Virus record (IMG/VR): IMGVR_UViG_3300013286_000012
Coordinates: 1 to 64,000 of that record
Origin: a virus
Length of the DNA: 64,000 nucleotides
Strand: one strand, 5' to 3'
Shown here piece after piece: positions 12,312-21,135 of this stretch. The translations under genes were made by a program, and so were the position numbers. A model generated the notes under the pieces. That model was given only the letters and a program-made list of their open reading frames with translations. It had not been told where the DNA came from and did no database searches. Numbering within the stretch: position 1 is the first letter of the stretch; the number at the start of each line of letters is the position of its first letter.

Positions 12312-12857
12312 CTGATTCGAATCAGAATCTCTTCGGAGCATTCGAGTCATCAACTGAAAGCGTGAAAAAGGCTAAAGAAGTAAATCGCAATAGCGGTGAA
12401 CTGATTCGAATCATTATGAATCCCTAGGGAATTCGATATCAGGTGACGGAAAGCGATTAGGACTTTTAATTACATAGAGACTAGATACACACGACTTAAT
12501 TGTTATTGGTCGTTACTGGAATAAATAAATGATTCTGTAATGGCGCAATTAATTCTCGTTGATAAATAACTGCAATATGCATGCACTCAACGACAACTAA
12601 GTTACTTCGAAACGTTAATGAAAATTAATCGTGAATAGTGTGGGGCTAGTGAGATTCATGGAATGCAATCAATATCAATTATGGAATGCCAATAATTACA
12701 TCACGCCTTATGTGTTGCTACTTATTGGTGCAGTCAGTAATCAATCTGTACGACAGAACATTGACGTTGATATTGAATGCATAGTGATTCTGCTTATGTA
12801 TTTTCTGCGGTTGCAACTAACACTCATTCAGCGAAATGGCATTGGTTGCAATCGTGG
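12312..12857 (+). ncRNA. Large structured RNA leader (unclassified)
   Basis: Many stems with G-U pairs, a cUUCGg tetraloop at 12329-12338, a 16-bp helix 12805-12820/12842-12857; pairs with 21051-21104. Confidence 0.7.
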
Positions 12858-12883
12858 TGAACACATAAACGAAAGGCAACACA

Positions 12884-13039
12884 ATGAAAAACACATACGC
12901 AATCGGTGACATCTACACCACAACCAAAACACAAGAAACTGGAACGATTAAAGAAATCGTTGTAATCAAACCAGACCTTGTAAAAATCCGACTAGACGTT
13001 GCTGGCGATACTCGCTGGACAACATGGAAACCCGAATAA
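12884..13039 (+). CDS. Small beta-rich protein (SH3/KOW-like)
   Basis: 51 aa MKNTYAIGDIYTT...RWTTWKPE; strong RBS GAAAGG; below track cutoff. Confidence 0.7.
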   Translation: MKNTYAIGDIYTTTKTQETGTIKEIVVIKPDLVKIRLDVAGDTRWTTWKPE

Positions 13040-13067
13040 CAACTACAACACAAAAGAGGGGCAACAC

Positions 13068-13367
13068 ATGGCAACTGCAATCGCAAATAATAAATCGGCT
13101 GAATACATTCAGAACCGAATCAATTTCACAGCCAGTAACTTCAAGGGATTTAATCTCTCGACAACACCTGACTGCTTCCGACCTGCAACTGGTCGTTTGC
13201 AATCAGACTTGGTTGTACAACTGCAACAAGATGAACCCGACTACATCATTTACTCATATGGCACACCAATCGCATGGCATGGCAAATTCGGTTGGCACTT
13301 ACCAGCAATCAAATACTCACAGATAACATCACGTCACCAATCACTAGTTAGAGGGGCAATCGCATGA
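13068..13367 (+). CDS. Actinophage-type hypothetical protein
   Basis: RBS GAGGGG; YIIYSYGTPIAW...KYSQITSRHQ motif. Confidence 0.7.
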   Translation: MATAIANNKSAEYIQNRINFTASNFKGFNLSTTPDCFRPATGRLQSDLVVQLQQDEPDYIIYSYGTPIAWHGKFGWHLPAIKYSQITSRHQSLVRGAIA

Positions 13368-13645
13368 CAACTTTATTTATGGGAACTGATTACTCTGAAA
13401 TCATTCTTGCAATCAACGGCAAACTTGATGATGAAATCGATAACGACATAACTGTTCGAGAACTCATTAAAGAAGAGAACATCGAAATTCTGCGTCAATT
13501 TTTATCCGCACATATCAACCACAATGAAAAGTGTGAGAATGGTCGTACAGAAGATAACGGCGTGTTCAAAGAATTGTTAAAGATAGAAGATGAATTCACA
13601 TTCTTAAATATCTTCTACGCTCTTGTTCCTCTGATGTGGTGTTAG
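13364..13645 (+). CDS. Hypothetical protein
   Basis: ATGA coupling. Confidence 0.6.
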   Translation: MTTLFMGTDYSEIILAINGKLDDEIDNDITVRELIKEENIEILRQFLSAHINHNEKCENGRTEDNGVFKELLKIEDEFTFLNIFYALVPLMWC

Positions 13646-13654
13646 GAGATACCA

Positions 13655-13918
13655 ATGAAGGATTTCAATCTAAAAGAACTCGGTGTGATTCACATGGTCA
13701 TTGATATGGCTCTGGAAAATTCAGATGACCTTGATGCACCACCACACATCATCACCACATTCGAATCAATACTTGCAAAGTTGCAACCACTCATTGATGA
13801 ACAATGTGAAATCTTTAATGAGTTTCAAGAACTCACAACACAACTTGCAGATGTAGAACTTGCATCACGCATCATCGCAAAGAATCCAGATGCAGTTACA
13901 ACTGAATACACCAACTAA
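13655..13918 (+). CDS. Hypothetical protein
   Basis: AGGAG RBS. Confidence 0.65.
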   Translation: MKDFNLKELGVIHMVIDMALENSDDLDAPPHIITTFESILAKLQPLIDEQCEIFNEFQELTTQLADVELASRIIAKNPDAVTTEYTN

Positions 13919-13943
13919 CCAATCAAAAGAAACGGAATACAAA

Positions 13944-14819
13944 ATGTCAACATCTCTATTCGTACCAACGCTCGAATCAACATCGCACTACATTCCACGA
14001 ACCTTCTCTGGTGGAATTGGTGAGTATCAAGCCTTTGACTTTGCATCAGATAACAACATGAACGTGTTGTCAGAAGGTGCAACTGGAACTGGTAAAACTT
14101 CTGCGGTGCTTTCGTATTGCGCCCAACGTCACTTGAACTTCTTTGCTGTTCCTTGCAACTCTGCAATCGACTTCACTCAGGTGATTGGTGGACTCTTTCC
14201 AAACGCTGACGGCAAACTCGAATGGGTTGACGGCGGTATCACGAAGATAGTTCGTGAGGGCGGTGTGCTTCTCATTAACGAATTAAATAATGCGCCAAAG
14301 AACTTGTCGCAGTACCTCATGTCATTACTAGATGACCGACGTTCAATCACTCTCATGGGTCATGGAAACGAAGTTGTGAAGGCGCACCCAGACCTTCTCA
14401 TCATCGCTGACCAGAATCCTCACTATCGTGGAACACAACTTCTCAACGAAGCATGGAAAGACCGATTCGAAATCAAGTTGCGTTATGAATATGACAACGA
14501 GATTGAAAAGAAAATTGTTGCATCGTCATCACTTCTGGAACTTGCTAACGGAATGCGTGCAACTTCACGACAAAACGAATACGCATCAGCAGACCGAGGA
14601 ACAATCTTCGAGACACCAATCTCTCCACGACTTCTTAAAACATTCGAGAAGGTTGCAAAGGGATTGACATTCGAATTCGCTGTCGAGAACTTCATCAATA
14701 ACTTCACAGATGAAGAACGCCCTGCAGTCAAGATGCTTCTTGAAGGCGTTACATACAACATCAAGGAAGAACTCGGACTTGCTGTTGATTCAATTAAAAC
14801 CGAATACGCAAACGCTTAA
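13944..14819 (+). CDS. MoxR/CbbQ-NirQ-NorQ (CobS-like) AAA+ ATPase
   Basis: Walker A GATGTGKT, Walker B variant LLINE, NP.YRGT..LNEA..DRF, ISPR; start MSTSLF. Confidence 0.9.
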   Translation: MSTSLFVPTLESTSHYIPRTFSGGIGEYQAFDFASDNNMNVLSEGATGTGKTSAVLSYCAQRHLNFFAVPCNSAIDFTQVIGGLFPNADGKLEWVDGGITKIVREGGVLLINELNNAPKNLSQYLMSLLDDRRSITLMGHGNEVVKAHPDLLIIADQNPHYRGTQLLNEAWKDRFEIKLRYEYDNEIEKKIVASSSLLELANGMRATSRQNEYASADRGTIFETPISPRLLKTFEKVAKGLTFEFAVENFINNFTDEERPAVKMLLEGVTYNIKEELGLAVDSIKTEYANA

Positions 14820-14828
14820 GGAGACATC

Positions 14829-19948: not shown

Positions 19949-19949
19949 A

Positions 19950-20279
19950 ATGAATAAACATCAAGATGATTTAATTAAATCAATCGACTTTGCCAACGAA
20001 TTTATGAAGGTAGTTCGTGGATTCAAAGTCGAACACGACCGACCTGACGGCTTGCCACAGGACGTTAAAGAACATCTTGCCAATCAACATCTCAACACCT
20101 TTATTGCAGAACGCAATCTAGAGCCAGAGATGCTCATCTGGGGAATGCTCCACATGATTGAAATTTTATTGGAGTATTGTGATTTAGAACCAGAAAATTT
20201 AATGTCTGTCATGGATACATTCGTACAACACATTAAAGATAACTCAGAGATATATGGAGATAAAGATGAGAATGACTAG
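19950..20279 (+). CDS. Hypothetical protein
   Basis: Start MNKHQDD after GGGAG RBS (3' part of track ORF 19761..20279). Confidence 0.65.
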   Translation: MNKHQDDLIKSIDFANEFMKVVRGFKVEHDRPDGLPQDVKEHLANQHLNTFIAERNLEPEMLIWGMLHMIEILLEYCDLEPENLMSVMDTFVQHIKDNSEIYGDKDEND

Positions 20280-20574
20280 ACCAAAGAAGGCACTATCTGT
20301 CGGATTCGAATTGACAACAGAGCGACCCGATATCGTTGATGCACCATGTCAATCAGTTGACCCAGAGACGTTCTTTCCAGACCCAACAGACCTTGCGTTA
20401 ACTCGTGAAGCAAAGTTGCTATGCAAACAATGTAATGTAAAAATTAAAAAAGATTGTCTCACATTTGCGCTTATCAACAAGATTGGTTACGGGATATGGG
20501 GTGGACTTACTACAGATGAAAGAAGAAACTTTAAACGTAGGGAGCAGAGAAGTGAAAGTAAGAATTCGCTATGA
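20254..20574 (+). CDS. whiB: WhiB-family transcription factor
   Basis: C...DPETFFP...AK.LC.QC....CL..AL....GIWGGLT..ER. Confidence 0.93.
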   Translation: MEIKMRMTRPKKALSVGFELTTERPDIVDAPCQSVDPETFFPDPTDLALTREAKLLCKQCNVKIKKDCLTFALINKIGYGIWGGLTTDERRNFKRREQRSESKNSL

Positions 20575-20762
20575 CAGATTGGCTAACAAGTACAGACATC
20601 GCAAATCAAATCGGAGTAAAGGTTCGCACGATATACAAGTATCGAGAGCGCGACACCCTTCCAACCCACGATGCCATGATTGGCAACAGACCAGTATGGA
20701 AGCAGACAACAATCGACGAATGGATAGTAAATCGTGATTCAAATGAATTGGAGATTCAGTAA
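20571..20762 (+). CDS. Excisionase/AlpA-like HTH protein
   Basis: WLT..DIA..IGV..RTI..YR....LP.......W....IDEW. Confidence 0.8.
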   Translation: MTDWLTSTDIANQIGVKVRTIYKYRERDTLPTHDAMIGNRPVWKQTTIDEWIVNRDSNELEIQ

Positions 20763-20910
20763 TGGCAATAAAAATTAGAGACTGCGTGGAATGTGCAGAC
20801 CAGCATTACACCAAAGATATGTATCCACATGAGGGTGCATATATCTGCGAACAATGCTTTCACGATACTTTTAAGTTCGAAAAATCTGATGAATTGGAGA
20901 TTCAGTAATG
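20743..20910 (+). repeat. 22-bp direct repeat ATGAATTGGAGATTCAGTAATG (20743-20764 and 20889-20910)
   Basis: Two identical copies, each containing RBS, stop and start. Confidence 0.9.
20762..20908 (+). CDS. Small Zn-finger protein between the direct repeats
   Basis: 48 aa MAIKIRDCVEC...CEQC...ELEIQ. Confidence 0.65.
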   Translation: MAIKIRDCVECADQHYTKDMYPHEGAYICEQCFHDTFKFEKSDELEIQ

Positions 20911-21012
20911 AATAAAATAACTGTCGAAGTAAATGATGAATGGTTAGAGTTTCTTGGAGAGATGAGTCGTGACAACAACGGATTCGTCTGGTTGAAAGTT
21001 GAACGAAAGTAA
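20908..21012 (+). CDS. 34-aa protein
   Basis: MNKITVEVNDEWLEFLGEM...; GGAG RBS and TAATG coupling. Confidence 0.5.
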   Translation: MNKITVEVNDEWLEFLGEMSRDNNGFVWLKVERK

Positions 21013-21050
21013 CTACGTCCAAATTCTTGGACGATATAAAAAGTTACTTC

Positions 21051-21104
21051 AAATTACATAAGCAGAATCAAATCTCGCTAGGTGTATCTAGTCTCATTAT
21101 GTGG
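21051..21104 (+). ncRNA. 3' trailer complementary to the 12.47-12.80 kb leader
   Basis: Three consecutive blocks reverse-complementary to 12785-12804, 12646-12656 and 12470-12490. Confidence 0.75.
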
Positions 21105-21106
21105 AC

Positions 21107-21135
21107 ACCCCAGATTTCGGTCTGGGGTTTTTTTT
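21107..21135 (+). terminator. Intrinsic terminator
   Basis: ACCCCAGA-TTTCGG-TCTGGGGT followed by a T run. Confidence 0.92.

Follow-up and report, generated by a model that had tools for sequence, protein, structure and literature searches.

A predicted three-part RNA contact joins the leader and 3′ end of a 7-9 kb operon in a family of uncultured temperate phages

Analysis of a 64,000-nucleotide (nt) stretch of viral DNA (the window; IMG/VR virus record IMGVR_UViG_3300013286_000012, positions 1 to 64,000, the full record being 76.5 kb) revealed that the non-coding leader, or 5′ untranslated region (UTR), of a plus-strand operon of about 8 kb is complementary, in three nested blocks, to a short trailer in the 3′ UTR at the far end of the same operon. 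Comparison with relatives indicates that this pairing is a real and conserved RNA-RNA contact. The operon is an early operon of a temperate phage, probably one with an actinobacterial host, and a family of such uncultured temperate phages keeps a 50-nt three-part clamp that joins the ends of a 7-9 kb early operon. Feedback from the 3′ UTR onto the 5′ leader, signalling that transcription of the operon has been completed, appears to be the best reading of this arrangement, to which we give a probability of about one half.

Nested complementarity between leader and trailer

In the window, the trailer segment 21055-21070 (TACATAAGCAGAATCA) pairs without a mismatch to 12785-12800 in the leader, of which it is the reverse complement (helix A), and past one mismatch the helix is extended by pairing of 21051-21053 with 12802-12804. 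Helix B joins 21071-21081 to 12646-12656 through ten Watson-Crick pairs and one G-U pair. In helix C, 21082-21095 are paired with 12477-12490 at 14 of 14 positions, and after a 2-nt bulge follows an extension (C-ext) in which 21098-21104 pair with 12470-12476 through five Watson-Crick and two G-U pairs. The trailer blocks abut (gaps of 0, 0 and 2 nt) to form one seed, and their leader counterparts lie 128 and 155 nt apart in nested order. All helices are present in the minimum-energy dimer calculated by RNAcofold, and the dimer is favoured over separate folding of the two RNAs by 31.4 kcal/mol. The nested chain scored 50, compared with a mean of 7.2 (standard deviation 3.5, maximum 19) for 200 shuffled trailers; loose chaining of weak helices gave mostly noise, and strict chains were used in its place. 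Across the whole 76.5-kb record, the two best targets of the seed are leader blocks A and C.

Relatives were collected by searching viral contigs with the integrase and the AAA_5 protein, which yielded 53 loci, and complementarity to each trailer was sought in the 2.6-3 kb preceding the AAA_5 gene. Synteny from AAA_5 to the integrase gene int holds throughout the relatives (6.85-8.8 kb, always co-oriented). The split pairing was kept in 13 of 13 non-redundant lineages holding both ends, with three nested blocks in ten of them, two blocks in L043 and L054 and one imperfect block in the L019 group; L042, whose contig stops before the trailer, was left out of this count. The block sequences diverge widely between lineages, as exemplified by L044 (TACATACGGACTA / TAGGCAACT / TGGCTTATGTGTTT) and L046 (TTACATAGTGACTAAG / GCTTAGACGAGTT / TTCGCTTATGTGTTTTC), and each trailer fits its own leader. 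An all-against-all partner-swap matrix was block-diagonal, with about eight specificity groups: trailers scored 26-59 against their own or a sister leader, mostly below 25 against leaders of other groups and about 2-7 when shuffled. With their common architecture, these groups offer natural orthogonal RNA-RNA pairs. In L038, compared with the window, leader block B has a 1-nt insertion and the trailer has a matching one, and the helix boundaries shift in concert. Block A, its partner in the leader hairpin P_A and the trailer block A′ also co-vary as a trio, reading CTATGT, ACATAG and CACATAGCGG in L050 and L052, and CTTATGT, ACATAAG and ACATAAGC elsewhere. Since the pairing is both conserved and co-varying, chance and a dead relic are excluded.

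The leader-trailer helices are 97% Watson-Crick (475 of 488 pairs), with few or no imperfections in individual helices of 14-22 bp. Helices so long and so regular are typical of antisense-type or very long-range pairing, unlike local RNA folds. They are also what is expected of DNA repeats, and the tyrosine integrase gene lies ~95 bp downstream of the trailer, while the core ACACATAAG recurs within the leader. The blocks might in that case be inverted repeats on which the adjacent recombinase inverts the 8-kb segment, or inverted protein-binding sites such as Int arm sites or operators. However, the repeat is contiguous at the trailer and split at the leader by 97-349 nt of conserved self-folding RNA (the L019 group, with a single block, excepted), an asymmetry incompatible with a recombination core. 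Furthermore, the segment is inverted in none of the contigs with both marker genes (0 of 82 minus-strand matches), the blocks of 9-22 bp are too short to have been kept matched by gene conversion, and they covary over their whole length, beyond any protein-sized motif. Because the split is at one end only, no inverted orientation occurs and the blocks are too short for gene conversion, a DNA recombination site is contradicted, and we consider any DNA-level explanation highly improbable.

An earlier reading of the window from its letters alone (the sequence-only reading) had given pairing coordinates for helices A, B and C, and all of them were borne out here. Relatives were the check that it proposed on its preference for RNA architecture over a DNA inversion site, and in these the three helices are conserved with compensatory changes and the segment, with AAA_5 and int co-oriented, is never inverted.

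Folding of the leader and of the 3′ end

The leader is evidently a plus-sense structured RNA. Its mean column identity across five relatives is ~78%, and 39 of 147 predicted pairs are maintained in these relatives via changes on both sides. The closing stem of domain 1 (12488-12492 / 12639-12643) shows compensatory changes, and the stem of domain 2 (12663-12678 / 12767-12782) contains many compensatory pairs. The loop of domain 2 carries the motif GCAGnCAGTAAyCAATCTG (within 12728-12760), whose sequence is kept even in the most distant relatives L054 and L019 and which may be a protein-binding or tertiary-contact site. A search of viral contigs with this motif gave 37 matches, mostly chance, and added one incomplete new contig to those already in hand.

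Hairpin P_A, also in the leader, shares a strand with block A. The 3′ half of block A (CTTATGTrTTT) pairs within P_A to GAAyACATAA, and the 3′ arm of the hairpin stops a few nt upstream of the Shine-Dalgarno sequence of the first open reading frame (ORF; ATG at 12884). A distance of a few nt from GAAyACATAA to the first gene's Shine-Dalgarno is found in the window and in L035, L037, L046, L047, L050 and L052. Fourteen of the 24 predicted pairs of P_A show changes on both sides across 11 lineages, and many are G-U pairs on the plus strand, which correspond to C-A on the opposite strand. The pairing of block A with P_A and its pairing with the trailer are mutually exclusive, and the leader therefore has the anatomy of a switch. 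In the predicted fold, the free leader is pre-organised, in that short C:B and B:A contacts together with the domain-closing stems gather the three blocks, and C-ext with the start of block C, unpaired in this fold, could serve as a toehold.

At the other end of the operon, every relative has its seed tightly flanked by hairpin H1 and the terminator, in the order H1, 2-7 nt, seed, 0-9 nt and terminator stem. The arms of H1 covary across relatives (AAGTAAC/GTTACTT versus ACTAAC/GTTAGT). No conserved promoter upstream of the seed was found among the relatives, so the seed depends on transcription of the operon. The AU-rich linker between H1 and the seed could conceivably be a cleavage site. In L038 and L046, terminator scans found no strong plus-strand terminator inside the operon, and the equivalent of the window's terminator is the sole strong one on this strand from the leader to int. 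The invariant AGTTACTTC preceding the seed was considered as a promoter or operator half-site and ruled out, as it is the 3′ arm of H1. Allowing up to one mismatch, AGTTACTTC occurs 58 times in the window compared with 17.6 expected, concentrated on the plus strand between 11.6 and 23.3 kb, and only the copy at 21042, that of H1, is accounted for.

The integrase promoter begins inside the U-tract of the terminator, and its equivalent in L038 scores 10/12. It is overlapped, in the window and in equivalents in L002-L029, by two to three palindromes (GTTACTnnnnAGTAAC) that differ among relatives in their central 4 nt and look like operators of a putative repressor.

The layout of a contiguous strand lying on arms separated by conserved folded domains would also fit a catalytic leader, either a ribozyme or the major part of a split one, in which arms C, B and A position the trailer to be cleaved, ligated, spliced or circularised; the conservation of the domain 2 loop motif across distant lineages points the same way. 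However, Rfam 15 gave no match for the window at gathering scores and none for 11200-12950, leader included, even at E<=5. Along the trailer strand, the gaps at the junctions differ between lineages (-1 to 2 nt, with 6 or 10 nt in two of them) and contain no conserved unpaired base, and the leader domains range from 97 to 349 nt among lineages instead of being constant. Group I or II introns need more than segments of 128-155 nt. The sequence-only reading had suggested that the leader segments between C, B and A fold into domains of their own, which the covariation confirms; its idea of a group I intron or other ribozyme, by contrast, drew no Rfam match for the leader and no conserved unpaired nucleotides at the trailer helix junctions, and catalysis seems to us very unlikely. 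Leader and trailer might still be the halves of one large functional RNA, joined only once transcription has reached the operon end and with an activity beyond the duplex, for example self-processing, recruitment of a phage protein via the domain 2 loop or direct control of an Xis/Int switch. We think this unlikely; if true, it would be an "operon completed" sensor of a kind undescribed for any phage. An rRNA-style boxA cassette found no support, as no boxA-like element was matched in the leader (12250-12883) and matches across the window were near chance level.

Feedback from the 3′ end and its alternatives

In the mechanism that we propose, the 3′ UTR, consisting of H1, the 50-nt single-stranded seed and the terminator, would be made only after the 8-kb operon has been transcribed through. 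The seed would zip onto leader strands C, B and A, pre-gathered by the short C:B and B:A contacts, and from the resulting quasi-continuous duplex of ~50 bp domains 1 and 2 would branch off at two three-way junctions. The pairing would also strip block A from the base of P_A, beside the ribosome-binding site of the first gene. Composed of helices of 20-21 bp stacked to about 50 bp, the duplex would be an RNase III-type substrate. The outcome would be a delayed, completion-dependent shift, of either sign, in the processing, stability or translation of leader-bearing transcripts. The partners would usually be separate or processed RNAs: a terminator-bearing RNA from the 3′ end, about 90-130 nt long, would bind the leaders of other transcripts. 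Pairing between both ends of a single intact 8.7-kb molecule would be the rarer case. Release of the 3′ RNA, its action in trans, the involvement of RNase III and any regulatory outcome are what we infer from this arrangement.

The sequence-only reading had instead placed both partners in cis, the ends of one full-length transcript pairing and looping out about 8.2 kb of coding RNA. Such a loop would protect both ends from RNases, or would form an rRNA-like RNase III processing stalk for maturation of the polycistronic mRNA. In its favour, the two elements share a strand and their blocks are correctly nested, L038 and L046 lack a strong plus-strand terminator between leader and trailer, and a single stacked rod could be built from H1, A, B, C and the terminator. 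Leader-trailer stems of rRNA are textbook knowledge, and pairing of the 5′ and 3′ UTRs within one mRNA has been described for icaR (PMC3868564). However, the leader would have to survive the minutes of 8-kb transcription while the body of the transcript is translated and degraded, a GC-rich hairpin inside the operon (16834-16856) may end some transcripts, long and almost perfect helices are a requirement of bimolecular pairing, and the free leader already folds closed and pre-organised. We prefer pairing in trans because the leader would otherwise need to stay intact for minutes, because long perfect helices suit bimolecular pairing, and because, within an mRNA, stability is usually highest for structured 5′ fragments and for 3′ fragments that carry a terminator. 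Pairing strictly in cis is less probable but a serious rival.

The roles might also be exchanged, with the leader as the regulator and the 3′ UTR as its target. The contact would then set read-through, or mRNA survival, from the xis operon into int and with it the Xis:Int balance, a logic analogous to the sib/tI retroregulation of lambda. The close spacing of the seed to the terminator stem in every relative and the start of the int promoter within the U-tract would suit this role, as would the position of an excisionase-like gene third from the operon end with int after the terminator. In some lineages, moreover, part of the leader complements the terminator's 5′ arm (helix D). Against this, helix D was not above the background of control windows (about p 0.004-0.07 in several lineages, absent in others), and helices A-C are clear of the terminator stem, so that no direct anti-terminator is evident. 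Helix D as an anti-terminator was attractive in the window, L038, L039 and L040, and was dropped because it did not exceed the control windows. Control of read-through by the leader is an improbable explanation of the pairing.

Several points weigh against completion feedback itself. The same pairing data fit a meeting of the partners in cis and in trans. When sequestration of block A was modelled, accessibility of the Shine-Dalgarno sequence rose modestly in five of six lineages while that of the whole start region barely changed, a small effect on the ribosome-binding site, and in L038, L039, L043 and L044 such an effect is irrelevant since the first ORF does not adjoin P_A. A translational switch is not claimed, because the start region barely changes and several lineages lack an ORF beside P_A. 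The three blocks are not obligatory either, as the L019 group has a single imperfect block of 27 nt. Finally, the sequence-only reading had argued from G-U pairs that the plus strand acts as RNA. This argument is strong for the internal helices of the leader, but for the leader-trailer helices it is suggestive at best: an unbiased recount gave 6-10 G-U against 1-2 A-C pairs (p 0.04-0.13), superseding an initial count of 23 against 5 that was biased by a scoring scheme rewarding G-U.

If feedback from the 3′ UTR is true, the operon would contain a built-in timer whose delay equals its transcription time. Such a timer would be a simple way, open to testing, of ordering the steps of phage development or of adjusting the balance of lysis, lysogeny and excision.

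Operon context and comparison with known systems

The features of the region are collected in Table 1. Genes on the minus strand stop at 11249 and are followed by a 1.6-kb non-coding region and then by the plus-strand operon, which two tiny ORFs close; the excisionase-like gene is parted from int by the trailer and terminator. Elsewhere the window encodes ribonucleotide reductase, DNA polymerase, helicase and baseplate genes. An actinobacterial host is assumed because a WhiB-like regulator is encoded, and the G+C content of 42% is possibly that of a freshwater host. A search for prophage relatives in bacterial genomes matched only short, distant integrase fragments and yielded neither host nor attachment site.

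Table 1. Positions of the leader, the 3′ end and the genes between and beside them (window coordinates)
Feature	Position	Strand	Remarks
Structured non-coding leader (5′ UTR)	12250..12883	+	no credible ORF
Leader block C (12477-12490) with C-ext (12470-12476)	12470..12490	+	partner 21082-21104; conserved in relatives
Leader domain 1	12491..12645	+	branches between helices C and B; 147-349 nt in relatives
Leader block B	12646..12656	+	partner 21071-21081
Leader domain 2	12657..12784	+	long hairpin between helices B and A
Leader block A	12785..12804	+	partner 21051-21070; 3′ half doubles as base of hairpin P_A
Leader hairpin P_A	12793..12871	+	5′ arm begins within block A; 3′ arm ..GAACACATAA
Operon between leader and trailer	12884..21012	+	about 18-19 ORFs
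AAA_5 ATPase	13860-14819	+	operon gene
VWA protein	14829-16823	+	operon gene
GC-rich hairpin GGGGCGCA...TGCGCCCC	16834-16856		after VWA gene; weak U-tract only
HNH protein	18271-18684	+	operon gene
WhiB-like regulator	20254-20574	+	Pfam Whib 5.8e-18
Excisionase-like HTH_17 protein	20571-20762	+	directly after WhiB-like gene
Hairpin H1	21005..21049	+	start of 3′ UTR; stop codon of last ORF (21010-21012) in 5′ arm; predicted fold
Trailer seed	21051..21104	+	A′ 21051-21070, B′ 21071-21081, C′ 21082-21095, C′-ext 21098-21104
Intrinsic terminator	21107..21136	+	9-bp stem, 4-nt loop (21107-21128), eight U
Integrase promoter	21131..21175	+	TTGACT, 17 nt, TAACCT; overlapped by palindromic operator-like sites GTTACTGGTCAGTAAC, CCTACTGATGAGTAAC
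Tyrosine integrase	21199..22476	+	Pfam Phage_integrase 4e-23; PHROG 1 at 1.5e-53

The GC-rich hairpin after the VWA gene might act within the operon as a stabiliser or as a partial terminator, perhaps ending some transcripts. Within the VWA-protein gene itself, imperfect 15/24-nt periodic repeats (GATTCTGAT...; 15825-15953) encode an Asp/Ser-rich low-complexity linker. Towards the operon end, an exact 22-nt direct repeat (20743-20764 and 20889-20910) encodes an identical C-terminal ..ELEIQ-stop on two successive small proteins, and the start codon of the gene that follows overlaps with it. In the 1.6-kb intergenic region, AAAAAAATCCATGCGCGGAAATTT (11942-11965), which L035 and L037 conserve, gives a small hairpin with seven U after it when read on the minus strand and may be the terminator of a leftward transcript; a GC-rich patch in the AT-rich spacer (12090-12160), considered as a possible attachment site, contains AGCCCCT three times and TCTGGGG twice.

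A phage record search with the leader gave no match, and the literature searched contains no description of such an element, which is not treated in the Minerva preprint (10.64898/2026.09.22.753630) either. Regulation by 3′ UTRs as known so far involves one short contact over a short distance or a classical small RNA, in a field that is only beginning. Among such RNAs, OppZ and CarZ of Vibrio cholerae are small RNAs derived from 3′ UTRs that pair with transcripts of their own operons (PMC7398697). Each carries the terminator of the polycistronic operon whose 3′ end it derives from, and as their synthesis reports completed transcription, they exert feedback; the seed at 21051-21104 likewise lies directly upstream of the operon's terminator and is complementary to the operon's own transcript. 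Unlike the element described here, OppZ and CarZ pair through a single short seed with a ribosome-binding site, either an internal one or that of the first gene, and require RNase E and Hfq, whereas the present 50-nt seed, part of a putative small RNA, addresses three separated strands of a roughly 600-nt structured leader and not a ribosome-binding site. To our knowledge, actinobacteria, the probable hosts, lack Hfq.

In icaR of Staphylococcus aureus, the 3′ UTR pairs with the mRNA's own 5′ UTR, which creates an RNase III substrate and alters expression (PMC3868564). The conserved complementarity of 5′ and 3′ UTRs within one transcription unit is common to both cases. However, icaR is monocistronic, with ends less than 1 kb apart and one contact that covers the Shine-Dalgarno sequence, whereas here the ends are separated by 8.2 kb and about 18-19 genes and the tripartite contact competes with a leader hairpin.

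In bacterial rRNA operons, leader and trailer sequences flanking kilobases of RNA pair into a long helix that is recognised by RNase III. These stems enclose a structural RNA, form one continuous helix and are associated with boxA/Nus antitermination, whereas in the window no boxA is present and the enclosed RNA is a translated mRNA. The c4 RNA of P1/P7 and the CI RNA of P4 are antisense immunity RNAs of temperate phages, in which short blocks pair with separated target blocks of the same transcription unit, and as with the trailers analysed here their specificity differs between related phages. They are, however, located upstream of or within the leader, excised by RNase P and act as immunity repressors, while in this family the small partner sits distally, at the 3′ terminus of the operon, and has no match in Rfam, which holds the c4 family. 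The sib element of lambda is an RNA structure by int/att that is read only by certain transcripts and mediates RNase III feedback on recombination genes; it is a local hairpin downstream of int, whereas the present element is upstream of int with its partner 8 kb away. The contact described here differs from all five systems in its three-part split recognition, its polycistronic span of 7-9 kb, the competing leader hairpin and its position between xis and int.

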